From Hyphomicrobiales bacterium (GTDB taxonomy: Bacteria; Pseudomonadota; Alphaproteobacteria; Rhizobiales; CAJQND01), in the NCBI GenBank assembly GCA_028285595.1, contig JANQOW010000007.1:19036-83035 (forward strand): 64,000 nucleotides of DNA. Direction: 5' to 3'. Shown here one piece after another: positions 18,798 through 32,736 of the stretch; the first letter of the stretch is position 1, and each line of letters starts with the position of its first letter. Below the pieces are notes generated by a model. The model worked only from the letters and a program-made list of their open reading frames with translations, was not told the origin of the DNA and did no database searches. The position numbers and the translations under genes were made by a program.

Positions 18798-21281
18798 ATG
18801 GCATCTCACCTTGACAGCAACGTCATTCCGCCCAGTCGCCAACGCGAAGTGCCGCGCCAAGGCATGACCTGGATCGGCCAAAGCATCAAGCGGGTGGAGG
18901 ATCCGCGCATTCTGTCCGGCAAGGGCGGCTACATCGATGACATCACTGTGCCCGGCATGGCGCATGCCGCTATGGTCCGGAGCCCGCATGCGCACGCACG
19001 GATCGTCAGCATCGACACATCAAAGGCCAAAGATCTGCCCGGCGTGATCGGCGTCTACACCGGCGAGGACCTCGCCACCGTCGTCGACCCGTGCCCCAGT
19101 TTTGCCTCTCCTCCTGTGCCGCAGCATGCCATGTCAATCGGCAAGGTGCGCCACGTGGGCGAAGTTGTCGCTGCCGTTGTCGCAGAGGATCGCTACATTG
19201 CGGAAGACGCCGCTGATCTCATCGAGGTTGAATGGGACGTTCTCCCCGCGAATGTTGATATTGAAGCATCGCTTGAGGCCACGGGAGATGCTGTCATTCA
19301 TCCCGATGATCGAGAAAGCAACAGCGCACTGGACCAAACGTTCGCCTTTGGCCCGGTGGAGCAGCACTTTGCCGAAGCGGACCACGTCATCAAGCGACGC
19401 CTAAGATGGAACCGTTCGTCCGCTCAAGCCATTGAGACGTGTGGTGTGGTCGCCGATTACGATGCCTTCAAGGGAGGCTACACAATCCATGCCAACACTA
19501 ATTTCTACAACTTCATACCCTTCGTGATCGGAGGGTCGCTTCGCGTGAGCCCGGGAGAGCTTCGTATCATCCCGGTCCTTGCAGGCGGCAGCTTCGGCTC
19601 GAAGGTCTTCATCCATAAGATCATCATATTGACGGCAGGTTTGGCGCGTCTCGCTGGCGTGCCGGTAAAGTACATCGAAGATCGGATGGAGCACTTTATG
19701 AACTCCGACAGTCATGGCTCCGACAGGCTCTATGACGCGGAACTCGCGGTGATGGAGGATGGCACGTTCCGGTCCCTCCGCTTCACAGTGCTCGACGACT
19801 ACGGCGCTTACCTGCAGTTCGGTGTCGGTACCCACGGCAATGCCATGGCGCAAGTCACCGGTCCGTACCAGATAGAGAGTGTTGGTATGCGCGTGATCGC
19901 TGTGCTGACCAACAAGTGCCAGCAGGGGCCGTATCGAGGTTTTGGCTCCGAAGTTACGAATTGGGTCATTGAGCGCATGGTTGATGCCACTGCCGAAGAG
20001 TTGGGCCGTGATGGGGTCGAATTGCGCGAGCAGAACATGGTCCAGCCTGACCAGTTTCCGTACATGATCCCCACCGGCAATATCTATGACAGCGGCAACT
20101 TCCAAGAGGTTCTGGCTCAAGCCAAGGGTTTGATCGACTACGATGCCTGGAAGGCGCGCGCAGCAGAGATGCGCACCGAGGGACGCTGTGTGGGTGTTGG
20201 GTTGGCAACCTGCATGGAGCGCAGTGTGTATGGGCCCACCGAGTGGTGGTCACTCAACGACAAAGAAGCGCCAGGCTTCACGCTCACCTCAACCCCTGAG
20301 GGGATCAGCGCGCGCATCGACCCGTCGGGCAAGATGTTTGTGACACTGAATTCGCCGATGGTCGGAAACTCGCCGGAGACGGTTGTCACACAGATCTTGG
20401 CGGAGCGACTGACCGTTGCGCCTGAGGATGTGGTGATCAACTACGCCGACAGCCAAACCGGCTTCAATGGCGTGGGCCCGCAAGGCAGCCGCTTTACGGC
20501 CATGATCGCCGGCGCGTGCGTCAGCGCCTCGATCAAGCTGGAGGAGCGGCTTCTGCGCTTTGCTGCGCATATGCTGCAGCGACGTCCCGATGACCTGGAG
20601 CTGCGGAACGGAGCTGTTGGCGTCAAAGGCCTGAAGGATCAGGAAAAAAGTTTTGGCGAGATCGCTCTGACCTCAAGCTTCTTCCGCCTCAGCTTCCCCG
20701 ATACCGAAGAGTTTGACAGCGGGCTAGAAACAACCGCCGTGTACGACCATCCTATTTCAAGCGACCCCCACCCTGACCGAGAGCATTTGGGCATTTTCTA
20801 CCCGATCGTCGGTCACATCTGTCACATTGTGGCGGTCGAGGTGGATCCTGGCACCGGGAAGGTTGACATTCTTGACTACGCCGCTGTGCATGACAACGGT
20901 ACCATTGTGAACCCCCGCACATTAGGCGGTCAGGTGTGGGGCGGAACGGCCAATGGGATTGGCTCAACGCTTTTTGAGCAGTTCATTTACGACGATGAGG
21001 GGCAGTTTACGAACCCCAACTTCGCGGAGTTCGCAATGCCCACTGCCAACGAAATGCCACGCAACTTCAAGCTGGGTCATGTGGAGACACCTTCACCATT
21101 CACCGAGTATGGCATTAAAGGCGGCGGGGAAGGTGGCCGGCTTGGTGCACCATCGGCGCTGACCACGGCGATAGAAGATGCGCTCAAGACCTACGGGGTG
21201 AAGATCAATTCTCTCCCCGTTACTCCGCCCACATTGCGCGGTTTGATCCGAGAGCGCGAACTGGCGATCACCGCCGAGTAG
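18798..21281 (+). CDS. molybdopterin-dependent hydroxylase large (CoxL-like) subunit, not CO-dehydrogenase type
   Basis: 827 aa with N-terminal GQSIKRVEDPRILSGKGGYIDD. The active-site loop region reads QQGPYRGFGSEV rather than the AYxCSFR (form I) or AYRGAGR (form II) CODH signatures. GGGAGG RBS. Confidence 0.85.
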   Translation: MASHLDSNVIPPSRQREVPRQGMTWIGQSIKRVEDPRILSGKGGYIDDITVPGMAHAAMVRSPHAHARIVSIDTSKAKDLPGVIGVYTGEDLATVVDPCPSFASPPVPQHAMSIGKVRHVGEVVAAVVAEDRYIAEDAADLIEVEWDVLPANVDIEASLEATGDAVIHPDDRESNSALDQTFAFGPVEQHFAEADHVIKRRLRWNRSSAQAIETCGVVADYDAFKGGYTIHANTNFYNFIPFVIGGSLRVSPGELRIIPVLAGGSFGSKVFIHKIIILTAGLARLAGVPVKYIEDRMEHFMNSDSHGSDRLYDAELAVMEDGTFRSLRFTVLDDYGAYLQFGVGTHGNAMAQVTGPYQIESVGMRVIAVLTNKCQQGPYRGFGSEVTNWVIERMVDATAEELGRDGVELREQNMVQPDQFPYMIPTGNIYDSGNFQEVLAQAKGLIDYDAWKARAAEMRTEGRCVGVGLATCMERSVYGPTEWWSLNDKEAPGFTLTSTPEGISARIDPSGKMFVTLNSPMVGNSPETVVTQILAERLTVAPEDVVINYADSQTGFNGVGPQGSRFTAMIAGACVSASIKLEERLLRFAAHMLQRRPDDLELRNGAVGVKGLKDQEKSFGEIALTSSFFRLSFPDTEEFDSGLETTAVYDHPISSDPHPDREHLGIFYPIVGHICHIVAVEVDPGTGKVDILDYAAVHDNGTIVNPRTLGGQVWGGTANGIGSTLFEQFIYDDEGQFTNPNFAEFAMPTANEMPRNFKLGHVETPSPFTEYGIKGGGEGGRLGAPSALTTAIEDALKTYGVKINSLPVTPPTLRGLIRERELAITAE

Positions 21282-21424: not shown

Positions 21425-22156
21425 ATGATAAAAGACAACATCAAGCCCAATGAAGTCACGCTAAAGGGCACGCCGCCCGCGCCAAGCCGCAGTTCTCGCG
21501 GCAAACCCGGGCGACCCAAAGGTGGGCGTCCGGAAGAGACACGCGATCGAATTTTGGACGCGGCCGAAAGCCTCTTTGCGGACCGAGGTTATGACGGAAC
21601 CTCGATCCGGGACGTGGCCACCGCAGCGGATGTACAGATCAATGCTGTCGGCTACCACTTTGGACCGAAAGAAGCACTGTTTGATACGGTCGTCGCTCGC
21701 CGCGCGACGATCATGACAACTCTGCGCCTCAACGCGCTTGATGAGGCGCGTGCCCAAGCCGGCGCAAAGCCGATCCCGATTGAGACACTGATACGCGATT
21801 ATGTTCGCCCTTTTATCGATAGCGCCGACCACGGCGAGCCTGGCTGGCGGAACTATGCGGCCCTCATGGGCCGCCTGGCGAACTCGCCTCTGGGCACTGA
21901 GATTATCGCGCGCCATTACGACGACACGGCGCGCGCCTATCTGACAGAGTTCCGCCGCGCGCTCCCGGAAGTGGCGCAGGAGGAGCTTGTCGATGGCTTT
22001 TCCGCCGTGGTGGCAAGCATGCTGAGCATTTGCGCCAACACAGGGCGGCGTGAGCGCTTGGCGGATGCGAAGCATCCCCGCCCGGCCCAAGCCAGCATTG
22101 AACTGCTGGTGCGTTTCCACACCGCGGGTTTTCGCGAGCTTTCAAGTAATGATTAG
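21425..22156 (+). CDS. TetR/AcrR family transcriptional regulator
   Basis: TRDRILDAAESLFADRGYDGTSIRDVATAADV HTH, preceded by a basic Pro/Gly/Arg-rich N-terminal tail. Confidence 0.88.
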   Translation: MIKDNIKPNEVTLKGTPPAPSRSSRGKPGRPKGGRPEETRDRILDAAESLFADRGYDGTSIRDVATAADVQINAVGYHFGPKEALFDTVVARRATIMTTLRLNALDEARAQAGAKPIPIETLIRDYVRPFIDSADHGEPGWRNYAALMGRLANSPLGTEIIARHYDDTARAYLTEFRRALPEVAQEELVDGFSAVVASMLSICANTGRRERLADAKHPRPAQASIELLVRFHTAGFRELSSND

Positions 22157-22170
22157 AATTGATTGGCTTG

Positions 22171-23094
22171 TCAGAGGTCTGAACTCGGTGCGCCAACCGC
22201 TGCCGCCATGGTGCGGTTCTTCACGCCTAATGCACGCAAAATGGTCGAAACATGAAGCTTGACCGTTCCTTCGCGGATGCCAAGCTGCTCAGCGATCTCC
22301 CGGTTGGACGCACCGGATTGCAGGAGCTGCAAAACCTCGCGCTGGCGTCTTGTCAGGCGATCGACGGCTTTGGACTCAGAGTTCGCGGCTTCTTGCTTTT
22401 CAGGGCCGGCCAACATCGTTTCATCTTCAGGTAGTTTCCCTGCTCGGACCAAGTCTCGAGCCGCCTTGAACGATGCCGCGAACTCCTCAAACGCATCGAC
22501 CACTTCGCTCGTTAGGCGTGCCGTCGGTTTCGGTTTCCGCTTCAACGCCTCAACGGCCGTTCTCAGTCTTTCAAATGGAACTGCCACGTCCCGCGCGGCT
22601 ATTGCGGCAAACCGTTGTTCTGAGATCTCATCTCGCTTGGTTTGGGCCAGAGCGCGCTCAAGAGCTTCTTTTGCTTCCCGCCGGTCGGTGACATCAAGAG
22701 CCACACCGTCCCATATCACTGTGCCATCTGACAAACGGCGGGGGTGGCCAATTGACCTAACCCACTTGAAGCCGCCATCAGGCAGTTCAACCCTCACCTC
22801 TTCATCAAGCATTGAAAGCTTGCCTGCCGATTTTTCCAGCGCACGAACGAAACGGTCGCGGTCGTCCGGATGCAGCCATTCGTGGCGCACGCCATCCCCT
22901 TGCATCAGCGCCTCAGGATCAAGGCCGAACGTGCTGCGAACTTCAGGGCTCACATAGCTGTAAAGGTATTTGCCATCGGGAGTGCGCACACGCTGCATAG
23001 TGTGGCCGGGGAAGTGGCCCCCGAAGAGATCGGAAAATCCTTCGACACCACGCGAGACGCTGGGCGCTGTATCAGCTTGAGTCTTCTTGTTCAT
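22171..23094 (-). CDS. PAS domain-containing LuxR-family transcriptional regulator
   Basis: PAS region (FGLDPEALMQGDG...WVRSIGHPRRLSDGTVIWDGVALDVTDRREAKEAL) plus C-terminal LuxR HTH (LTRRQREVLQLLQSGASNREIAEQLGIREGTVKLHVSTIL). No receiver domain. The start codon is uncertain because no SD is present. Confidence 0.82.
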   Translation of the reverse strand: MNKKTQADTAPSVSRGVEGFSDLFGGHFPGHTMQRVRTPDGKYLYSYVSPEVRSTFGLDPEALMQGDGVRHEWLHPDDRDRFVRALEKSAGKLSMLDEEVRVELPDGGFKWVRSIGHPRRLSDGTVIWDGVALDVTDRREAKEALERALAQTKRDEISEQRFAAIAARDVAVPFERLRTAVEALKRKPKPTARLTSEVVDAFEEFAASFKAARDLVRAGKLPEDETMLAGPEKQEAANSESKAVDRLTRRQREVLQLLQSGASNREIAEQLGIREGTVKLHVSTILRALGVKNRTMAAAVGAPSSDL

Positions 23095-23230
23095 ATAACT
23101 TTAGTTATAAAATTCCGATGTTTTTGTCAATTTTAAAGCCATAAATCGCTGGAATTGAGTCTATTTTTCTGTTTGTATTGTACGAAAGATATATATCACC
23201 TTGTGTAGGTACCTATGGGAGGGAACCTTC

Positions 23231-24127
23231 ATGGACAAGATCATCATTGAGGCACGTGTCAACGAATTGGCACCACGTGATGAAAACAAGAACGTGCCCT
23301 TTCTACCATCTGAGATCGTAAGGGATGCTAAGGCGTGCTTCGACGAAGGCGCCTCCATTTTGCACTACCATGGGCGCTCTGCAGACGGCACCCCCGAACA
23401 CGCCGCGGAGTTTTATCTAGAGACCAACGCGGGGATCCGGGATCTTTGCCCGATCCTCATTCACCCCACACTTGGATACGTGGCTCATGATGCAGATGCT
23501 ATGGGGCGCTTCGCGGCTGTTGAGGAAATGATGAAGCACCCGTCCACGGCGCCAGATTTTGCGCCGATGGATGTGGGCAGTGTGAATGTGGATTGGTGGA
23601 ACCCTTCAGACAACTCGTACGATACCACCAACCTGATCTACAAGAACTCAACTGAGACTCTGATGCACTTTGCCGATCGTATAAAGCATCATGGACTCAA
23701 GCAGTATCTGGTGTCGTGGAACGTCAGCTTCACACGGCAGATAGAAGCATTCATGAAGATGGGTGTAATCCCTGAGCCAGCCTATGTTTGCTTCTGCTTG
23801 ACAGATGGCATCATGCTGGCCGGCCATCCCGGAACGCCAGAGGGTCTCGATGCCCACACAGTATTTCTGCCAAAGGATCGCAACATCATTTGGACCGTTG
23901 TGAACTACAAGGGCAACCTGCTGCTCTTAACGGAGAAGATCATCAAGCAGGGCGGACACATCTCCATTGGTCTCGGCGATTATCCCTACACTGAGTTTGG
24001 TGAGCCGACGAATGCGGAGATCATCGCGAAAGTCGTCGAACAGGCTCGGGCCCTCGGTCGCGAGCCGGCGACGGTAGAGGAAACCCGACAAATTCTTCAA
24101 ATGGGCGAAGTCCGCGTCGCGGCCTAA
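23231..24127 (+). CDS. BKACE (3-keto-5-aminohexanoate cleavage enzyme, DUF849) family protein
   Basis: MDKIIIEARVNE...ASILHYHGRSADG (HxH Zn ligands). Start behind GGGAGGG. Confidence 0.72.
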   Translation: MDKIIIEARVNELAPRDENKNVPFLPSEIVRDAKACFDEGASILHYHGRSADGTPEHAAEFYLETNAGIRDLCPILIHPTLGYVAHDADAMGRFAAVEEMMKHPSTAPDFAPMDVGSVNVDWWNPSDNSYDTTNLIYKNSTETLMHFADRIKHHGLKQYLVSWNVSFTRQIEAFMKMGVIPEPAYVCFCLTDGIMLAGHPGTPEGLDAHTVFLPKDRNIIWTVVNYKGNLLLLTEKIIKQGGHISIGLGDYPYTEFGEPTNAEIIAKVVEQARALGREPATVEETRQILQMGEVRVAA

Positions 24128-24170
24128 AGACCCACAAACACCTGCAAAGACCAAATGGGAGGAAGTCATT

Positions 24171-25184
24171 ATGTCTTTCAAGTCACTGCTGAGATGCACA
24201 ATCGTAGGCGCCGTTGCCTTAGGTGCGGCGACTACTGCGCAGGCGGAAGCTCTCAAGATGCAGACATTCCTTGGCGCCAAGGCCTCGACGACGAAGGCGT
24301 TCGAAGAGATGGCTGCCGCGCTCAAGGCGGATACTGGTGGCGCCGTTGACATAACGGTTCTGCCCGGCAAGGCCGTTGTGGGGGCAACGGAGACCATTGA
24401 CGCCATCAAAAACGGTCTGCTCGACGGTCAATACACAGCGCCAACATATTTTGCCGGCAAGGATCCAGCCATGGCGGTGCTTGGCGACACCCTATCTGCC
24501 TATCCGGACTCAGCGACGCGCGATCGCTGGTTTAGTGAAGGCGGCGGTCTCGAATTGGCGCGTGCGCTATATGCCAAGCATGGTTTGCACTTCGTCTGCC
24601 CGATCTATTGGCCCCCAGAGCAGATCCCGTCCACAAAGCCCATCAACTCGGTGGGCGATTTTAAGGGCCTAAAGATGCGCGCTCCGGGTGGCACTCCATC
24701 CGATCTCCTCAGCCGTGCCGGCGCCTCGCTGGTGAAAATGGGTGTGGGCGAGTCCGTGACCGCCATGGAGACCGGCGTGCTTGACGCGACGGACCTGGCC
24801 AATATCGGCCTCAATGTTGCACTCGGCATGCACAACAAGGCTAAGTATTCGATCCTCGCACGCCATTCGATGGCCGTGACCGAGATGTCGGTGTCCAAGG
24901 CCAAATGGGATGCACTGTCTGACGACCATAAGGCCAAGTTCGAAGCTGCTTGCAACTCCATGTCCGCAAAACTCAAGGAAACCCTCAGCGCCGAAGACGA
25001 GGCAGCGGCCATGAAGGCAAAGAACGAACTCGGCGTTACGTTCATTGAGTTTGGTGACAAAGATGCAGCCGCGTTTCGAAAAATGTTGACGGAGGTTTGG
25101 AAAGATTGGGCTGCCAAGAGTCCGGATGCCGCGGCGATCGTCCATAGTCACAAGGCGTTCATGACGAAGCTTGGATTGCTCTGA
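24171..25184 (+). CDS. TRAP transporter substrate-binding protein (DctP-type)
   Basis: 337 aa with signal peptide ...GAATTAQAEA, followed by DctQ and DctM genes. Confidence 0.85.
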   Translation: MSFKSLLRCTIVGAVALGAATTAQAEALKMQTFLGAKASTTKAFEEMAAALKADTGGAVDITVLPGKAVVGATETIDAIKNGLLDGQYTAPTYFAGKDPAMAVLGDTLSAYPDSATRDRWFSEGGGLELARALYAKHGLHFVCPIYWPPEQIPSTKPINSVGDFKGLKMRAPGGTPSDLLSRAGASLVKMGVGESVTAMETGVLDATDLANIGLNVALGMHNKAKYSILARHSMAVTEMSVSKAKWDALSDDHKAKFEAACNSMSAKLKETLSAEDEAAAMKAKNELGVTFIEFGDKDAAAFRKMLTEVWKDWAAKSPDAAAIVHSHKAFMTKLGLL

Positions 25185-25269
25185 ATTCGGGTCCTCCCCG
25201 GGGCGGGTCTAATTGCTGCACGACCGATTGGGCCCGCCTCCTCCCCCTTTGCTGAAGAGTATCTGCGCC

Positions 25270-25770
25270 ATGGGTTTTCTCGACAGATTTGCGCTCCGAC
25301 TGGGCAGTTTGATCGCATGGGGCTTTCTCGTAATCGTTGCGCTGATGGTATACGAAGTCGTCGCTCGGTATGGCTTCAACGCACCAACCATCTGGGCCCA
25401 TGAGATCGCGGGTGTCCTCGCTGCGGTGGCTTTTGTTTTTGGCGGCGCCTATTGCATGGCGGAGGACTCGCACATGCGGATCACCTCTTTCGTGGAATCG
25501 CGCGGTCGTAGCGTGCGGGCATTTTCGCATTACCTGAGTATTGCCGCAGGCACCCTCTATCTTGCCGGACTTGCCTATGCCGCATTTCGCATGGCCCGGG
25601 ATGCGTTGTTCCGCTTTTCAATTTCAGGCACCTGGGATCCTGAGCGTTCGGGAAGCACTTGGAACACTCCAGCGCCCTCCTACATCAAGCTGGCGCTGTG
25701 TGTTGGCGCTGCTTTGTTTCTCATCGTGCTTTTGCGCCGGCTGTTTACCGGGCACGGACCGGACAACTGA
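25270..25770 (+). CDS. TRAP transporter small permease (DctQ-type)
   Basis: 4-TM small membrane protein. Start set at MGFLDRF; the track ORF starts at 25213. Confidence 0.8.
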   Translation: MGFLDRFALRLGSLIAWGFLVIVALMVYEVVARYGFNAPTIWAHEIAGVLAAVAFVFGGAYCMAEDSHMRITSFVESRGRSVRAFSHYLSIAAGTLYLAGLAYAAFRMARDALFRFSISGTWDPERSGSTWNTPAPSYIKLALCVGAALFLIVLLRRLFTGHGPDN

Positions 25771-25773
25771 CAC

Positions 25774-27090
25774 ATGGACATTGCCACGATCTCGATCGTA
25801 ATCGTGGTTGCCATGGTCTTCCTCTTGGCGATGGGCGTGCCGCTGGCGTTTGTCTCCGGATCGATCGCCGTGGTTTTGGCCGTTACCAGTTTCGGTCCCA
25901 ATGCGCTCTTTATCGTCGGCAGCCGCACAGCCGAGTTCCTCAACTCCTTCGCGCTTGTCGCGGTGCCAATGTTTGTGCTGATGGCTTCAATTATGGAGCG
26001 ATCCGGGGTTGCCCGCGATCTCTACCGCGCCTTTCATGTTTGGGCCGGCGAACTGCGCGGAGGTGTTGGGATCATCACCACATTAGTGGCGGTTTTGCTT
26101 GGCGCGACAACCGGGATTATCGGCGGTGAGATCGTCTTGCTTGGTCTGATCGCCCTCCCGCAAATGCTCAAGCTTGGCTACGACAAGAAACTGGCGGTGG
26201 GCATCATCACGGCGGGTGGTTCCCTCGGCACCATGATCCCGCCAAGCATCATACTGATCTTCTACGGTATCACGGCCGAAGTCTCGATCTCTCATCTGTT
26301 CCTGGCCACCATTGTTCCCGGTCTCATGCTCGCGAGCCTCTACATCGCGTACATCGTCGTGCGTTGCAGGCTCAATCCAGCACTTGGCCCGCCGATTGAT
26401 GCCGCCGATCTCGCAATGCCGCTATCGGAGAAGCTTACTTTGCTTAAGGGCGTTGCATTACCGCTGCTGGTGGCAGGGTCTGTCCTCATTTCGATCTATG
26501 CCGGTCTAGCCTCTATCACCGAATCCGCCGCGGTCGGTGTCGCCGGTACGATACTTGCCGCCTGGGTCCGGCGAGAGCTCACCTGGGAAATGATCACCGG
26601 CGCCCTGCTGCAGGCGATGAAGACCTGTGGGATGGTGTTCTGGCTGGTGTTCGGCACCAATGCGCTGATTGGCGTCTATAATCTCCTGGGCGGTATCGCT
26701 TTCGCTCAGGGACTGCTGTCGGGCATCTCTTCGGAACCGGCCATCATTCTGGCAGTGATGATTGGTGTGTTCATCCTGCTCGGCTTCTTCATCGACTGGA
26801 TCGGCATCTTGTTTCTCACTATGCCAATCTTCCTGCCAACCCTACAAGCGCTCGGATATGACCCGATCTGGTTCGGCATTGTGTTCAATCTGTCAATGCA
26901 GATCGCCTATCTAACGCCGCCCTTTGGGCCAGCTTGTTTCTACCTCAAAGGGGCGGCGCCGCCTGAAGTCAGCTTGCAGGACATCTTTGCCGCCCAGTGG
27001 TCCTTCATCGCCCTGCAACTTCTCGGCCTGCTCATCATTGTTCTCTTCCCGCAGCTGTCCTTATGGCTGCCCCAACTGGTTTATGGATAA
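25774..27090 (+). CDS. TRAP transporter large permease (DctM-type)
   Basis: 438-aa polytopic membrane ORF, 3 nt after DctQ. Confidence 0.9.
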   Translation: MDIATISIVIVVAMVFLLAMGVPLAFVSGSIAVVLAVTSFGPNALFIVGSRTAEFLNSFALVAVPMFVLMASIMERSGVARDLYRAFHVWAGELRGGVGIITTLVAVLLGATTGIIGGEIVLLGLIALPQMLKLGYDKKLAVGIITAGGSLGTMIPPSIILIFYGITAEVSISHLFLATIVPGLMLASLYIAYIVVRCRLNPALGPPIDAADLAMPLSEKLTLLKGVALPLLVAGSVLISIYAGLASITESAAVGVAGTILAAWVRRELTWEMITGALLQAMKTCGMVFWLVFGTNALIGVYNLLGGIAFAQGLLSGISSEPAIILAVMIGVFILLGFFIDWIGILFLTMPIFLPTLQALGYDPIWFGIVFNLSMQIAYLTPPFGPACFYLKGAAPPEVSLQDIFAAQWSFIALQLLGLLIIVLFPQLSLWLPQLVYG

Positions 27091-27095
27091 GTACC

Positions 27096-29126
27096 ATGGC
27101 GTCGACCGATATCCTCAAGAAGACCGAAAGCGTTCAACCGTCGAACTTGCTCGCCAACGAAGACCTTGTGGAACTGTTGGCGATGATGACGCGGATCCGA
27201 CAGTTTGAGACACGGACAACCGAGCTGTTCGATGCCGGCAAGATCAAAGGGACCGCGCATTCGTCTGTGGGCCAGGAAGCCATTGCCGCAGGCGCTTGTA
27301 GAGCCCTGGAGCCGGAAGACTTTATCCTGACCCACCATCGCGGCCACGGCCACACCATCGCAAAGGGCGCGGACATGCGATTGATGATGGCTGAGCTGAT
27401 GGGTAAGGCTAACGGCTATTGTTTCGGTCTCGGCGGATCAATGCATATCGCTGACTTCGAGCGACGTATCCTCGGCGCCAACGGCATTGTTGGCGCAGGT
27501 ATGGGTCTGGGCACGGGTGCGGCGCTGGCTGAAACACTCAAAGGCACCGGTGCCATAGGCATTGCCTTCTTCGGCGATGGTGCGGCGAGTGAGGGCATCT
27601 TCCATGAAGCCATGAATCTCGCCGCGATCTGGAAACTGCCTCTCCTGTTCTTCTGTGAGAACAACCAGTACGGCCTGTCGACCCCAACGGCCGACGTCAT
27701 TGCGGGGGGCGGCATCGCGCGACGGGCCGATGCCTATGATCTTCCGGGGCATCTCATCGATGGCAATGACCCCGTGGCGGTTCATGACACTGTTCTGCGT
27801 GCGGCGATGAGGGCCCGGGATGGTGACGGGCCGAGCCTGATCGAGGCGATCACCTATCGTTGGGGCGACCACTCCATGCGGGCCAATCTTCCCAAATATC
27901 GCGGTGAGGACGAGGAGAACGAGTGGCGTGACAAAGACCCCGTCGCCCGCATGCTGGAGCGGCTGCAAGCGGCTGGCGCACTGGATGAAGCCGGTTACGG
28001 CACGCTGTTGGAAGATGCAGAAGTGGAGATCGAACAGGCTATTGAATGGGCCGATGCCTGCCCGGAGCCAGACATGAGCCAGGCCCTTTCCCTGGTTGCT
28101 TCGCCGCCCATAAGCAGCGCCAGCCGGGAGCCGGAGCCCGGCACGCGGCTTTGCACCTATGGCCGGGCGATCAACGAGGCCATCCGACAAGAGATGCACC
28201 GTGACGACACCGTCTTCGTTATCGGCGAAGATGTCGGGAGGATTGGCGGTATCTTTGGCATCACGCGCAATCTGCAGGATGAGTTCGGCGCTGCCCGGGT
28301 CCGCGACACGCCCATCGCCGAAGGAGCAATTGCCAATTGTGGTGTCGGCGCTGCCATGTCCGGTCTGCGGCCGATCGTCGAGATCCAGTTGTTCGATTTC
28401 GTGTCCTTGATGATGGATGCTATCGTCAATCAGGCTGCCAAGGCGCGCTTTATGATGGGGGGCAAGCCAAAGGTGCCGGTTGTCTTCCGTGGCCCGCAGG
28501 GCGCCGGCATCCGCCTCGCGGCCCAACACTGCCAGTCGCTTGAGGCTTGGTTTGCGCATGTCCCGGGGCTGGAGGTTTATGCGCCTTCAAATGCCTATGA
28601 TGCCAAGGGTCTAATGGCGGCGGCGATCCGCTCCGATAACCCGGTCGTTTTTCTTGAGCACAAACTGCTCTATCTGGGCGGTGAGGAGCCGGTCCCTGAA
28701 GAGCTCTACACGGTCCGGCCCGGCGAGGCGCGCATTGTTAGATCTGGCAACGACTGCACGGTCATCGCGTTGATGGCAATGGTCGAACGGGCAATGCAGG
28801 CTGCGATGCAGCTTGAGCGACAGGGGATCAATGTTGAGATTATTGATCCTCGCACAGTCAAACCGCTTGATGCCGAAACGATCATAAACAGCGTCAAAAA
28901 GACCAACCGTGCTGTCATTGTGCACGAGGCCGTTCGTTTCGGGGGTATCGGTGCTGAAATTGCAGCGACCATTACCGAACAGGCTTTCGATTGGCTCGAT
29001 GCACCGGTCGCTCGCATCGGGGCGCCCGAGATGCCGGTCCCTTACAACGACAAACTGGAGCGCGAATACATGCCCTCACCAAACATGATCGCTGAAGCCA
29101 TTAAGGAGGTTTGTTATGTCGACTGA
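27096..29126 (+). CDS. fused thiamine-diphosphate-dependent dehydrogenase E1 alpha-beta (acetoin/2-oxoacid dehydrogenase E1-like)
   Basis: 676 aa. The alpha part carries the TPP motif FFGDGAASEG...FFCENNQYG. A Pro/Ser-rich linker follows (LVASPPISSASREPEPG). The beta part reads VFVIGEDVGRIGGIFGITR...DTPIAEGAI. Start moved to MASTDIL (27096). Confidence 0.85.
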   Translation: MASTDILKKTESVQPSNLLANEDLVELLAMMTRIRQFETRTTELFDAGKIKGTAHSSVGQEAIAAGACRALEPEDFILTHHRGHGHTIAKGADMRLMMAELMGKANGYCFGLGGSMHIADFERRILGANGIVGAGMGLGTGAALAETLKGTGAIGIAFFGDGAASEGIFHEAMNLAAIWKLPLLFFCENNQYGLSTPTADVIAGGGIARRADAYDLPGHLIDGNDPVAVHDTVLRAAMRARDGDGPSLIEAITYRWGDHSMRANLPKYRGEDEENEWRDKDPVARMLERLQAAGALDEAGYGTLLEDAEVEIEQAIEWADACPEPDMSQALSLVASPPISSASREPEPGTRLCTYGRAINEAIRQEMHRDDTVFVIGEDVGRIGGIFGITRNLQDEFGAARVRDTPIAEGAIANCGVGAAMSGLRPIVEIQLFDFVSLMMDAIVNQAAKARFMMGGKPKVPVVFRGPQGAGIRLAAQHCQSLEAWFAHVPGLEVYAPSNAYDAKGLMAAAIRSDNPVVFLEHKLLYLGGEEPVPEELYTVRPGEARIVRSGNDCTVIALMAMVERAMQAAMQLERQGINVEIIDPRTVKPLDAETIINSVKKTNRAVIVHEAVRFGGIGAEIAATITEQAFDWLDAPVARIGAPEMPVPYNDKLEREYMPSPNMIAEAIKEVCYVD

Positions 29127-29526
29127 ACGAAAACTAATCGTCCCTCCCGGGCTGGAGAGCGTTTACGAGACGTTCCACTACGCGCCCGGCATTCAGGTTG
29201 GCGACACGCTCTTCATTTCCGGCCAGGTTGGCCGCGATGCAAATCTCAAAGTGCTTGATGGCGCAGAAAAACAGTTCGTTCAGGCTTTTGAGAACGTCAA
29301 AGCGGTTCTCGACGCGGCTGGTGCCACATTTGACGATGTCGTCGAAATGGAGACCTGGTTTGCTGACGATATGGCAGACCTGAAGCTGTTTATGACGGTC
29401 AAGGACCGCTACTTCAACAACCACTATCCGACCTGGACTGGCTTTGCTGTTAAGGGGTTTTCGATGCTGGGCATCCTGGTTGAGATCAAATGCACCGCTG
29501 TTGTGGGGACCAGACATGTCACATGA
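29116..29526 (+). CDS. RidA/YjgF family protein
   Basis: 136 aa with ...HYAPGIQVGDTLFISGQVGRD.... AAGGAGG RBS. Overlaps the E1 stop by 11 nt. Confidence 0.85.
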   Translation: MSTERKLIVPPGLESVYETFHYAPGIQVGDTLFISGQVGRDANLKVLDGAEKQFVQAFENVKAVLDAAGATFDDVVEMETWFADDMADLKLFMTVKDRYFNNHYPTWTGFAVKGFSMLGILVEIKCTAVVGTRHVT

Positions 29527-30301
29527 ACTTAAGGCGATTTTGGCCGACAACACCGTTAGCCTCGGCACTTGGACACAGATCGCTACACCGGAAATGGTCG
29601 ATCTTGTGGGGCTAAATGGCTTCCAATTCACGATTATCGATTGCGAGCATGGCCACTTTGGCATCGAAACGGCGGAGAACCTCTCGCGGGCCGCCGACGC
29701 GGTTGGCATTGCCTCGGCAGTACGCGTTTTGGTGAACGAGCCCACTGCAATTATGAAGGCGCTAGATGCCGGGATCCGCCATGTGGTCGTACCTAACCTG
29801 TCGAGTGCCGAGGAGGCCGCGCGCGCTGTGGCATCGACGAGATTTGGGCCGCACGGTCTGCGAGGTGCCTGTCCCTGCTGTCGCTCTGGAGGCCATTTCA
29901 TCCGCAACTGGCAAGATTATGTCGACGAGGAAGAGGCTCGAGTGGGTGCAATCGGTCTCGTGGAGACCCAAGCAGGCTATGAGAGTTTCGGTGAGATCTG
30001 TAAGAACAAGGACATGGCTGCTTTTATGTTCGGCGCATTCGATCTGTCGGTGTCGATGGGGCTTGAGGGCAACTGGCGCCACGAACGGGTCATCGGTGCT
30101 GTTCGCGACATGGTCGCTCGTGCGGTTGACACCGGTCACCATGTGATGATGCCGGTGTTTTCGCCTGACCCTTCAGAATGCGCAGACATGATCAGCGACT
30201 GGCGCTCCCGCGGGGTCAATACCTTCGTCATTGGTTCCGACAAGATCCTCGTTGCTGAAGCTTTCGCCACCTGGGCCGGCGCGTTGTCAAAGGGGTCATA
30301 G
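29516..30301 (+). CDS. HpcH/HpaI aldolase/citrate lyase family protein
   Basis: MSHELKAILADNTVSLGTWTQIATPEMVDLVGLNGFQFTIIDCEHG, typical class II 2-keto-3-deoxy-acid aldolase N-terminus. Overlaps the RidA stop by 11 nt. Confidence 0.85.
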   Translation: MSHELKAILADNTVSLGTWTQIATPEMVDLVGLNGFQFTIIDCEHGHFGIETAENLSRAADAVGIASAVRVLVNEPTAIMKALDAGIRHVVVPNLSSAEEAARAVASTRFGPHGLRGACPCCRSGGHFIRNWQDYVDEEEARVGAIGLVETQAGYESFGEICKNKDMAAFMFGAFDLSVSMGLEGNWRHERVIGAVRDMVARAVDTGHHVMMPVFSPDPSECADMISDWRSRGVNTFVIGSDKILVAEAFATWAGALSKGS

Positions 30302-30416: not shown

Positions 30417-31760
30417 TCAATTGTCTTCGGTCCTATTGGCAAACTCGACAGTGAACACTTCCCGCTCTCCTTCCAAACCGCGAAGTGCAAACTTGCCAAT
30501 GGAAATGGTCGTAAAGTCCGCATTGAGCGCTTGTTCAGTCGATGCATCGATGAGCAGGCGCGCGCCAAGCTGTTTGCCCTGGCTTTCAAGCCGAGATGCC
30601 AGATTGACGGTGTCACCATAAACCGTGAATGCCTGTCGTCGGGAGGATCCAATATTCCCGGCAGCGATATCGCCAGATGCGATGCCGATCCGTATGTCGA
30701 ACTCGCTGCGGTCCGCCATAGCCAATAGGTCCAAAGCAGCTCTCACGGACTTTGGTTCGGGAAGATCAGTTTCGATAGGCGCATTGAAGGTGGCCAAAAG
30801 GCCATCGCCCGTAAAAGTGATGACGATCCCCTCGTGCTTGCTCACGATATCACTTGCGTCCGCCAGGAATGAATCGTGTGAAACAATCACGTCGTGAGGA
30901 TGGCGATCTGCGGCAAACTGCGTAAAGTCTGCAATATCGAGCACCAGAACGGATCCATGCCGCACTTGTGGTGCCAACGCATCCGGTCCCTCAACCAACT
31001 TATGAACGATTGCCTCTGGCACGTAGCGCCCCAAAGTGTTGGTGACCCGTTCCCGAGCCAGTCGCTCTTCTTCCTGCCGGACTTCTGCGGCTATCTGGGC
31101 GAAGAACACCTTCCGCGCCCGATAGACAGCCAAGCCCAAGATCAGGGCACCGGCAAACAACAGGCCCGTCTCCTCGATGCGATTTCCCACTCCGATAAAC
31201 CGGGCGGACAGGAACACATTTTCATAGTCCTCTCGTGTGGCCAGTTGAGGAATGTCGCCCCACGAGTAAACATTGTCCATGCCGGCAACGATCCACAAGA
31301 AAGCCGCCCACCATCCAACAACGGCAACGCACCCAGCCCATACGACGAGCCGCCAGGACAAGGACAAACACGCCATAGCCACCAGCGGGAACAGGTAATA
31401 GATGCCATAGGCGCGAAACGCGATGATCTGTGGGACGTCGCCGGTTGAGCTGACCGGGATTATCACAAACATTGCACAAACGCCGGCGATGTCGGCGGCA
31501 TATATGGCAAATTTGATCCACGGTCTGTCCAAACGGGTGCCGATTACCGCAAGGTGCGAAATTCCAAAGGCCGTGAATGCCAGCAAGGAAAGAACGGCGA
31601 GCGCTCGCACCTCGAAATCAGGCGACACCACTGACGCCCCGAGGTACCATACCAGCCCCGCAGCCGTTGCCGCTGTGCGGCAAAAGATTGCCAAGCGCAG
31701 GCCATTCTGTTCGGCCTTAACAAGTCGCCCCAACGCTCGCTCGCGAATTCGTTCCGGCAC
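30417..31760 (-). CDS. membrane-anchored class III nucleotidyl cyclase
   Basis: About 6 N-terminal TM helices plus a cyclase domain (VLDIADFT...ITFTGDGLLATF...FTVYGDTVNLASRLES). Confidence 0.82.
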   Translation of the reverse strand: MPERIRERALGRLVKAEQNGLRLAIFCRTAATAAGLVWYLGASVVSPDFEVRALAVLSLLAFTAFGISHLAVIGTRLDRPWIKFAIYAADIAGVCAMFVIIPVSSTGDVPQIIAFRAYGIYYLFPLVAMACLSLSWRLVVWAGCVAVVGWWAAFLWIVAGMDNVYSWGDIPQLATREDYENVFLSARFIGVGNRIEETGLLFAGALILGLAVYRARKVFFAQIAAEVRQEEERLARERVTNTLGRYVPEAIVHKLVEGPDALAPQVRHGSVLVLDIADFTQFAADRHPHDVIVSHDSFLADASDIVSKHEGIVITFTGDGLLATFNAPIETDLPEPKSVRAALDLLAMADRSEFDIRIGIASGDIAAGNIGSSRRQAFTVYGDTVNLASRLESQGKQLGARLLIDASTEQALNADFTTISIGKFALRGLEGEREVFTVEFANRTEDN

Positions 31761-31857: not shown

Positions 31858-32736
31858 ATGGAACTCAGGCACCTAAGATACTTCTTGGCCGTCGCTGAAT
31901 CTGGAGGCGTTCGCATGGCGGCGAACAGATTGCACGTCGCACAACCTGCAATATCCAGACAAATCAGAGATTTGGAGAATGAGCTCGGGTTCTCTTTGTT
32001 CGAACGCGTGGGCAGAGGGATAATCTTGACGGATGCGGGAAAGCACTACCTGGAACACGTTCGGCGCGTTTTGAAGGATCTGGATGAGGCTCAACGTTCA
32101 GCCGCACGAATTGCAGAGGGCCGAGGCGGTGTCTTGAGGATCGGCCTGCTGGAGAACGCTTCTTGGGCCGGGCATGCGCCGAGCACATTAAAGCGTTTCG
32201 CACGCAATCATCCCGACATCTCGTTGGAGATCAAACCGATGTCGTCGGTTGCCCAGCTGGAGTTGATCGCTGCTGGCGGTCTTGATGGTGGGTTCCTGTA
32301 CCGACAAGACAGGATGGACAGATCACTTCATGAGGTGGTTCCACTCCGAACCGATGACGTCGTCTTCGCCGCTTCAAGTGATCTCGTGTTTGATCACGAA
32401 AACGATCTAACGCTTGAGGATATTGAGGGGCTTCCTCTGGTTGGATTTCCGCGCGATGTGGCTCCGTCCTATTTCGATAGACTGCACGCTGCTTTGGAGC
32501 ATATCGGGTTTGAGCCGCACTATGCTCAACTGGTGGAGAACGAGACAATTATTCTAAGCCTCGTCTCCGCAGGCGTTGGCTGCGCCTTCGTCAACTCCGC
32601 TAACGAGGCGCGGCCGCCGCGTAATGTTCAGTTCCGGCGGGTCGAGGGTTTGTCGGTGCCCATCGACTTTCTGTTTGTTCACCGTCGCCCACCGGGCACG
32701 ACGTTATCGAAGTTCTTGGCGACGATCACTGAATGA
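31858..32736 (+). CDS. LysR family transcriptional regulator
   Basis: MELRHLRYFLAVAESGGVRMAANRLHVAQPAISRQIRDLE wHTH, 292 aa. Confidence 0.9.
   Translation: MELRHLRYFLAVAESGGVRMAANRLHVAQPAISRQIRDLENELGFSLFERVGRGIILTDAGKHYLEHVRRVLKDLDEAQRSAARIAEGRGGVLRIGLLENASWAGHAPSTLKRFARNHPDISLEIKPMSSVAQLELIAAGGLDGGFLYRQDRMDRSLHEVVPLRTDDVVFAASSDLVFDHENDLTLEDIEGLPLVGFPRDVAPSYFDRLHAALEHIGFEPHYAQLVENETIILSLVSAGVGCAFVNSANEARPPRNVQFRRVEGLSVPIDFLFVHRRPPGTTLSKFLATITE

Follow-up and report, generated by a model that had tools for sequence, protein, structure and literature searches.

The open reading frames (ORFs) of a 64-kb window, meaning the whole stretch of 64,000 nucleotides analysed here (contig JANQOW010000007.1 of a Hyphomicrobiales bacterium, GC content 0.56), were mapped and scanned against protein families. 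This work concerns one region of the window, in which a tightly packed operon of seven plus-strand genes (23231-30301) lies opposite a minus-strand regulator gene. The operon encodes a DUF849 enzyme, the three components of a tripartite ATP-independent periplasmic (TRAP) transporter, a fused E1 enzyme dependent on thiamin diphosphate (ThDP), a Rid-family protein and an HpcH/HpaI-family aldolase-like protein. The comparisons described below confirmed that the region is a real, self-contained eight-gene unit composed of a regulator, a transporter and four enzymes. Its features are:

22171-23094, minus strand: LuxR-type regulator of 307 aa with PAS_3 (Pfam, 3e-12) and GerE (4e-17) domains.
23095-23108, no strand assigned: perfect palindrome ATAACTTTAGTTAT, operator-like, abutting the regulator start codon; read directly.
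23185-23196, no strand assigned: half-site-like element AAAGATATATAT, about 35 nt upstream of the DUF849 start; read directly.
23231-24127, plus strand: DUF849/PF05853 metalloenzyme of the CESH[D]-like 'non-BKACE' clade, Cys-189 type (PF05853, 8e-58, full length).
24171-25184, plus strand: TRAP solute-binding protein of the DctP family, with signal peptide (PF03480, 4e-39).
25270-25770 (alternative start TTG 25213), plus strand: TRAP small membrane subunit DctQ (PF04290, 7e-20).
25774-27090, plus strand: TRAP large membrane subunit DctM (PF06808, 1e-68; TIGR00786, 286 bits, above cut-off).
27096-29126, plus strand: fused ThDP E1 alpha-beta protein of 676 aa (E1_dh, 1e-80; Transket_pyr, 1e-40; Transketolase_C, 9e-42).
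29116-29526, plus strand: Rid-family protein of the YjgH-like (Rid7) type (Ribonuc_L-PSP, PF01042, 8e-24).
29516-30301, plus strand: HpcH/HpaI-family class II pyruvate aldolase-like protein (PF03328, 3e-20).

A first-pass annotation of this DNA had described seven plus-strand genes diverging from a PAS-LuxR regulator across a 136-bp AT-rich spacer, and this layout was reproduced; the spacer between the regulator and DUF849 genes has a GC content of 0.32, compared with 0.56 for the window. Gaps of 43, 3 and 5 nt were found within the operon, together with 11-nt overlaps at the E1/Rid and Rid/HpcH junctions. The earlier statement that no gap exceeds 43 nt agrees with these values and depends otherwise on the start codon chosen for dctQ: the distance from dctP is 85 nt with the ATG at 25270, which is the start in an independent gene call (166-aa product), and falls to 28 nt only with the TTG at 25213. 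The DUF849 gene, first in the operon, is preceded by a strong GGGAGGG located 8 nt 5' of its start, of which GGGAGG is conserved.

One genome per GTDB species was scanned with an alignment of DUF849 relatives, which gave 80 loci with 10-kb flanks (these and further loci are numbered below with the prefix L). The module content of each locus was scored by tblastn with the window proteins, and 62 of the 80 loci had enough downstream DNA to be informative. All seven structural genes were kept in 54 of the 62 informative loci, in identical order in 52 and with the Rid and HpcH genes swapped in two; the divergent regulator was also present in 53 complete modules (39-66% identity). Three informative loci, in the Hyphomicrobiaceae, carry a bare DUF849 and E1 pair only, without transporter or aldolase, and five show a different gene context. 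This pair is the minimal conserved unit and, because it persists by itself in the Hyphomicrobiaceae, DUF849 and E1 are regarded as the core enzymes.

Dozens of Alphaproteobacteria, marine and in some cases from soil, carry the module intact. Its carriers include Hyphomicrobiales (Anderseniella, Hoeflea, Devosia, Cohaesibacter, Roseibium), Kiloniellales, Rhodospirillales and many Rhodobacterales (Roseobacter, Tateyamaria, Roseovarius, Litoreibacter, Roseicyclus). In the model roseobacter Jannaschia sp. CCS1 the module, divergent regulator included, follows the gene order of the window. A permuted form was found in Bosea sp. R86505 and in one JGI genome, where the same eight genes are grouped around a 58%-identical DUF849 and the Rid gene precedes that of E1.

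All-against-all clustering of the flank ORFs of the 80 loci revealed no further recurrent family in more than about 11 loci, and the families reaching up to that number were artefacts or variant contexts. The genes that neighbour the module in the window are mostly missing at the other loci, the exceptions being scattered weak matches to short-chain dehydrogenases/reductases (SDRs), one weak match to a molybdenum enzyme (36%, L015) and L028, described at the end of the text. Since the flanks are not conserved and no further family recurs beside the module, the unit is self-contained. The first-pass annotation had described an orphan operon beside a regulator and had named neighbourhood analysis as a check; the counts given above show that the operon is genuine and conserved. 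Both circumstances in which the proposal would have had to be abandoned are removed by the same data: a chance juxtaposition is ruled out by the strong conservation of the block in the 80-locus comparison, and missing pathway genes just outside the operon are ruled out by the clustering of flank ORFs.

The palindrome at 23095-23108 had also been reported earlier, as a perfect repeat touching the regulator start and leaving no Shine-Dalgarno sequence. Direct reading agreed with this description: the regulator start codon appears as CAT on the plus strand (23092-23094), the palindrome adjoins it with no spacer, and a Shine-Dalgarno sequence is impossible at that position. The arrangement recurs, a 14-mer like ATAACTnnAGTTAT (at most 3 mismatches) directly following the regulator CAT in 55 of the 66 upstream regions compared. 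Because of this phylogenetic footprint, the palindrome is likely to be a conserved operator and the predicted binding site of the LuxR-type regulator. Its conserved contact with the regulator's own start codon suggests that the regulator is autoregulated and that its mRNA is either leaderless or free of a Shine-Dalgarno sequence. The regulator was assigned to the LuxR type on two grounds, its C-terminal GerE helix-turn-helix and an inverted repeat that is conserved in the promoter region it would target.

On the operon side of the spacer, the AAAGATATATAT element at 23185-23196 is a putative second binding site. A AAAGATATA-type element occurs about 30-40 nt before the DUF849 start in loci of the Hyphomicrobiales/Kiloniellales type (L001-L009, L018, L021 and L050). 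Rhodobacterales and Hoeflea loci have instead another full site at a distance of 42-43 bp from the first, and Jannaschia sp. CCS1 has both sites. In Bosea, a related TATATCTTTAGATATA is located in the intergenic spacer, away from the regulator ATG. The only 0-mismatch palindrome site in the whole window is ATAACTTTAGTTAT itself; no second good operator site was found elsewhere in the 64 kb, hence no extra regulon members are indicated. A consensus scan of the region detected no sigma-70-like promoter, and terminator matches were at background level.

Two other repeats were noted in regions of this kind. In the permuted module of the JGI genome (L087, 8925-8955) a different inverted repeat is present, CATATGCCT and AGGCATAT separated by a 10-nt spacer; its similar half-sites and long spacer suggest operator divergence. 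In the window, a 10-nt inverted repeat, TCTTGTTCAT at 23085-23094 and ATGGACAAGA at 23231-23240, lies over both divergent start codons. It was rejected as an element, because the two genes have similar N-terminal codons (M-(N/D)-K-(K/I) at the start of both proteins) and the repeat is probably an incidental result of this.

[quoted passage not shown] Its best solved relative, however, is the cis-epoxysuccinate hydrolase CESH[D] (5zmu; E value 3e-83, about 50% identity over the whole length), whereas Kce, the founding BKACE, was matched at only 1e-16. CESH[D] of Bordetella sp. BK-52 (PDB 5zmu/5zmy) is a TIM-barrel metalloenzyme of the same DUF849 family; it has two of the three Kce metal ligands in common with Kce and uses Glu14 as the third (PMC6429283). 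Ring opening is performed by Asp115 and Glu190, with Arg11 donating a proton and Asp251 positioning Arg11, and the product, D-tartrate, is bound to the metal through three oxygens (PMC6429283).

CESH residues R11, E14, H47, H49, D115 and D251 are invariant in the window protein, where they are numbered R9, E12, H45, H47, D114 and D250, and in 120 close relatives. The second catalytic residue of CESH[D], E190, is replaced: C189 stands at this position in the window protein, and in the 120 relatives the residue is Cys (102), Val (14) or Ala (4) and in no case Glu. Of the 120 proteins closest to CESH[D] itself, only 47 have Glu190. By these residues, the window enzyme can be placed in a Cys-189 subclade within a broader CESH-like clade whose members have the metal, base and acid core in common. 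None of the three Glu190-type CESH[D] relatives examined lies within a TRAP/E1/Rid/HpcH module. The possibility of a module on plasmids of model rhizobia was rejected, as no Cys-type DUF849 was found among the PLSDB plasmids; the best match there, 48% identical, lies in acid-sugar clusters.

Canonical family members bind Zn through a His-His-Glu triad (PMC6429283; bioRxiv 10.64898/2026.01.15.699783). The window enzyme has the PF05853 family, the TIM-barrel fold and both His ligands in common with Kce, the carnitine enzymes and the other BKACE groups G1-G6, but it lacks their third ligand: Kce E230 (BsfD E247) is replaced by G249, invariant in 24 of 24 orthologs. It is also without Kce E143 and R226, which we take to be catalytic residues for the Claisen reaction with acetyl-CoA; V161 and S245, both invariant, occupy the aligned positions. 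All NCBIfam BKACE equivalogs scored far below cut-off, the best being NF052387 with 121 bits against 382. Canonical BKACE function was rejected on the residue tests, and judged by its sequence the window DUF849 protein is of the kind found in group G7, 'non-BKACE' proteins inactive on all keto acids tested (bioRxiv 10.1101/2023.02.15.528638; PMC4922564). Bastard's group G7 includes proteins that lack an active-site residue.

The 'RidA' label fared no better. The best solved relative of the Rid protein is E. coli YjgH (1pf5, 2e-18), and RidA-type proteins scored 1e-13 or worse. RidA requires Arg105 for binding the substrate carboxylate (PMC4433059); in the window protein the segment aligned to Arg105 of E. 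coli RidA reads YPTWTGF and contains no Arg. The P-T-W triplet (W107) is invariant in 58 orthologs. Replacement of the RidA Arg by Trp is a property of Rid4 and of Rid7, the YjgH-like group; Salmonella Rid7 had no imine hydrolase activity, and the functions of Rid4-7 were unknown, 'mysterious' in the words of the 2015 family survey (PMC4433059). Function as an imine/enamine deaminase was rejected because of the Trp at the Arg105 position, and by its residue pattern the protein is of the Rid7/YjgH type. It shares with Rid7 its closest solved relative and this Trp, and differs in being translationally coupled to a ThDP E1 and an aldolase.

These results bear on the model put forward in the first-pass annotation, in which a canonical BKACE works with acetyl-CoA and RidA quenches enamine or imine intermediates during the degradation of an amino- or keto-acid. 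Pfam does assign PF05853 and PF01042, and the public names of the DUF849 proteins point the same way, but the replacements at the Zn-ligand, Kce E143/R226 and Arg105 positions largely refute the model, the equivalog scores do not reach cut-off, and the module contains no pyridoxal phosphate enzyme, amine oxidase, thiolase or CoA-handling gene. We consider it highly improbable. Since both labels fail, the proposal of an amino- or keto-acid substrate is left without a basis, and the puzzle of the missing CoA ligase and thiolase falls away. The other half of that proposal, a carboxylate imported by the TRAP system, remains likely, as described below.

Pyruvate dehydrogenase (PDH) E1 structures were the top structure matches of the fused E1, and the PDH E1-beta subfamily model gave 390 bits (cut-off 321). 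The GDG...NN motif for ThDP and a YRW(D/G)DHSM loop, which resembles the active-site loop of PDH E1-alpha, are invariant in 67 orthologs. Against alphaproteobacterial PdhB, the match sets in at model position 137, past the lipoyl domain, and the E1 is without such a domain. The three domains, the ThDP motif and the active-site loop are common to the window E1, to the pyruvate/acetoin dehydrogenase E1 enzymes (alpha2beta2) and to an E1 of Fuscovulum blasticum plasmid pRsa. Compared with the pyruvate/acetoin dehydrogenase enzymes, the window protein differs in that alpha and beta are fused, the lipoyl domain is missing, E2 and E3 are absent from the operon and the window, and the gene is coupled to DUF849.

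The pRsa protein is the closest plasmid homologue (62% identity) and its gene directly precedes that of an E2 acyltransferase; because of this position, the E1 lineage can by analogy be considered E2-competent. A tblastn search with the pRsa E2 retrieved only three unrelated loci. The pRsa locus (L089, NZ_CP020471.1 219-7830), a further candidate cleavage system, comprises in this order a LysR regulator, the E1 alpha-beta gene, the E2 acyltransferase, an SDR and a VOC protein. At 3.7 kb downstream there is a sulfite exporter of the TauE/SafE type, and a Liv-type ABC transporter and a formylglycine-generating enzyme lie across the record origin.

The transporter was recognized by the joint presence of the P, Q and M components and by a conserved Arg in P. 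The nearest solved relatives of DctP are 4pe3, the calcium-lactate binder TTHA0766 and 2-oxo-acid binders of the TakP type. DctP carries the motif GLKMRAP, whose Arg presumably occupies the position of the carboxylate-binding Arg of SiaP. In SiaP, that conserved Arg binds the carboxylate (PMC4646407). The window system has the DctP/Q/M architecture of the TakP/TTHA0766-type systems for 2-oxo acids and lactate, its closest solved binding proteins are in that clade and the motif with the carboxylate-binding Arg is conserved, the similarity being only at the E 1e-40 level. The substrate is therefore likely to be a carboxylate imported by the TRAP system.

The relationship of DctP to lactate and pyruvate binders would also fit the assimilation of C2 or C3 compounds in place of the breakdown of a larger acid, for example the handling of glycolate, glyoxylate or lactate. 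E1 would then act as a carboligase on glyoxylate- or pyruvate-derived units, DUF849 would convert the resulting alpha-hydroxy-beta-oxo acid, and the aldolase would condense or cleave pyruvate adducts. Enzymes of the E1 family can form 2-hydroxy-3-oxo acids, as Kgd of M. tuberculosis does, and the transporter-less DUF849 and E1 pair of the Hyphomicrobiaceae is compatible with such a scheme. The module, however, has no reductase or kinase to feed central metabolism, and the net stoichiometry would be no better than that of known routes. The idea, which is purely inferential, is in our judgement very unlikely.

The last enzyme of the operon had its best family and structure matches among the acid-sugar aldolases GarL and YfaU. 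H45, R70, E150 and D176 align to GarL H50, R75, E153 and D179, which we take to be the catalytic His, the catalytic Arg and the two metal-binding carboxylates, and they are invariant in 57-58 orthologs. Their conservation and invariance among orthologs make a class II pyruvate-aldolase mechanism plausible. The protein is only distantly related to the enzymes of known function: it is about 30% identical to GarL or HpaI, and the GarL, HpaI and RhmA equivalogs scored 63-109 bits (about 100-109 for GarL and HpaI) against cut-offs of 369-441.

It also has an extra motif, namely C43 beside the catalytic His and RGA-C119-P-C121-[C/V]-R-S-G-G-H127 (window 29642-29650 and 29870-29896), in which C43, C119, C121 and H127 are invariant. 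This motif is missing from GarL and HpaI and could represent a second metal site or serve a redox or thiol function. With the GarL/HpaI/YfaU aldolases of glucarate/galactarate, homoprotocatechuate and rhamnonate catabolism the window protein thus shares the family, the catalytic set and the terminal place in a catabolic operon; the window operon lacks the dehydratases, hydratases and reductases that accompany them in those pathways, and the window protein has the extra Cys/His motif.

From the gene content, conservation, residue patterns and operator footprint observed, we infer the reaction types, their order and the class of substrate as follows. The module would serve the inducible uptake and catabolism of a small oxygenated carboxylate by CoA-independent chemistry, a proposal to which we give about even credence. 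The probable substrate is an acid-sugar-like compound of about C3-C6 that carries an alpha-hydroxy or alpha-oxo group. The PAS-LuxR protein would bind ATAACT-nn-AGTTAT operators in the 136-bp divergent region, the one placed over its own translation start providing autoregulation and the other elements lying upstream of the operon. The acid would be imported by the TRAP system through a binding protein of the lactate/2-oxo-acid-binding clade.

DUF849, as a CESH[D]-type metal enzyme with a His-His-Glu14 site, Asp115 as base and Arg11 as acid, may act on a metal-chelated hydroxy-acid by C-O (or C-X) chemistry that does not depend on CoA; a 2-oxo acid or an acyloin would be produced, whether by ring opening, beta-elimination or ketol isomerisation. 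The fused E1 would decarboxylate or cleave this product through ThDP, either passing the acyl group to a lipoyl-E2/E3 encoded elsewhere, presumably the housekeeping one, or releasing an aldehyde as a decarboxylase or lyase. The HpcH enzyme would split a 4-hydroxy-2-oxo acid into pyruvate and an aldehyde. Rid7 may have an accessory role, which would not be that of an imine deaminase.

A more specific version of this proposal is a route of the acid-sugar or aldarate type. An alpha,beta-dihydroxy or alpha-hydroxy-beta-oxo acid (tartrate-like, a tetronate, an aldarate or an ascorbate-derived compound) would be the substrate of DUF849, working as a dehydratase, isomerase or decarboxylase; the GarL-like aldolase would give pyruvate and tartronate semialdehyde or a similar aldehyde, and E1 would remove the 2-oxo acid of the hydroxypyruvate type that results. 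The D-tartrate held by three oxygens on the CESH[D] metal (PMC6429283), the GarL and YfaU matches of the aldolase and the place of the binding protein in the 2-hydroxy/2-oxo-acid clade are consistent with it, as is the position of broader CESH-like DUF849 genes directly after DUF1537 kinases in D-apionate-type clusters with OiaX. These acid-sugar contexts, however, involve the Glu190 type and not the Cys189 type; the dehydrogenase, kinase and reductase used by every known acid-sugar route are absent from the module, and the Hyphomicrobiaceae pair has no aldolase. We consider this version unlikely.

The gene surroundings of the Glu190-type and related proteins were as follows. In Rhizobium etli plasmid pRetIE4771a (L091, 5656-7879) and in Sinorhizobium glycinis (L084, 10756-12985) a CESH[D]-like DUF849 gene lies directly downstream of a DUF1537 four-carbon acid-sugar kinase gene, in clusters with SDRs, sugar ABC transporters and the RuBisCO-like OiaX of the D-apionate pathway; the L084 gene, of the Glu190 type, is placed between GntR regulators beside the DUF1537 kinase cluster. 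True CESH[D] orthologs in Bordetella tumulicola and Cupriavidus pinatubonensis (L081-L083) form a two-gene unit with a TctC (tripartite tricarboxylate) binding protein, beside an AraC or a GntR regulator, followed in Cupriavidus by Ldh_2, pyruvate kinase, aldehyde dehydrogenase and PEP carboxylase. The CESH[D]-TctC context in Cupriavidus and Bordetella is a lead to the natural role of this industrial enzyme.

Several observations weigh against the uptake and catabolism proposal. E1 and the aldolase would both act on 2-oxo acids, which looks redundant if the route is simply linear. With no dehydrogenase, kinase or reductase in the operon, its products have to be central metabolites already. Neither an E2 nor a lipoyl protein was found in the operon or among the other 45 ORFs of the window, and none was recurrent in the 80 loci. 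The invariant extra Cys/His residues of the aldolase hint that it may be a non-standard aldolase.

Furthermore, Cys-189-type DUF849 orthologs of 70-85% identity also occur without E1, Rid and HpcH (L010, L008, L019, L020, L023, L036, L041 and L045). The E1-less loci carry dioxygenases of the TauD/RdpA/AtsK type (seven loci, one to four in each) and choline-sulfatase-like sulfatases (two loci), and they adjoin an AtsR/SsuA-type ABC system, luciferase-like monooxygenases, an enolase-superfamily protein and a class II aldolase. Such contexts point to a different, possibly organosulfur, class of substrate.

On an organosulfur route, the substrate would be a sulfonated or sulfated hydroxy- or oxo-acid resembling sulfolactate or sulfopyruvate, from which DUF849 or E1 would expel sulfite or sulfate. 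One option is that E1 turns a 3-substituted pyruvate into acetyl-ThDP and the leaving group is lost, which would account for the missing E2; with 3-fluoropyruvate, PDH E1 eliminates the leaving group after decarboxylation. In addition to the dioxygenases, sulfatases, sulfonate/sulfate-ester-type ABC system and monooxygenases just mentioned, the NetSyn preprint ties G7 DUF849 proteins to taurine dioxygenases. On the other hand, the TauD contexts are without E1, Rid and HpcH and may reflect a different use of the enzyme, neither a sulfite oxidase nor Xsc/Pta recurs beside the module in the 80 loci, and a literature search returned no link between DUF849 and sulfonates. The sulfite exporter 3.7 kb from the pRsa E1 homologue speaks in favour, but such an exporter is near the module in only one of the 80 loci and was therefore rejected as support. 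We regard an organosulfur route as quite unlikely. Neither lead, towards acid-sugar-like alpha-hydroxy-beta-oxo acids or towards sulfonated or sulfated acids, is decisive.

Returning to the inducible catabolism of a small oxygenated carboxylate, the object is ordinary in kind, a regulator with a TRAP-linked catabolic operon, and it is the combination of enzymes that is unmatched. The first-pass annotation knew of no characterised pathway that combines these genes, and our full-text searches likewise found no paper on the combination. The module may define an undescribed pathway in which a CESH[D]-type DUF849 and a Rid7 protein, together with an E2-less fused E1 and a Cys-rich HpcH protein, degrade a widespread natural acid, possibly ascorbate-, aldarate- or organosulfur-derived; we hold this view tentatively, as a real possibility that falls somewhat short of probable.

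If it is correct, the pathway would give a first natural role both to the D-tartrate-making industrial enzyme family and to Rid7. D-tartrate has been produced for decades with CESH[D]-like DUF849 enzymes, for which no physiological substrate is known, and catabolic operons linked to a transporter are the most productive route to new enzyme functions. The present case is unusually clean: the eight genes travel together in at least 54 species, among them the culturable Jannaschia sp. CCS1, Tateyamaria omphalii, Roseobacter spp. and Bosea sp., which makes the module a well-defined and experimentally tractable target. The expected gain is in niche enzymology and marine carbon cycling and would not amount to a new biological principle. 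In the meantime, the database names '3-keto-5-aminohexanoate cleavage protein' and 'RidA family protein' mislead pathway inference across the clade.

The genes on either side of the module in the window were also recorded. Directly upstream, on the plus strand, are the large subunit of a molybdenum enzyme of the xanthine dehydrogenase family (18798-21281) and a TetR regulator (21425-22156); the window also holds one FAD_binding_5 and one Fer2_2 protein, likely partner subunits of the molybdenum enzyme. Downstream of the operon are a class III adenylate/guanylate cyclase (30417-31760, minus strand) and a LysR regulator (31858-32736, plus strand). Homologues of these last two (56-58% identity) lie a few kb upstream of the module at a single other locus, that of Tateyamaria omphalii (L028).

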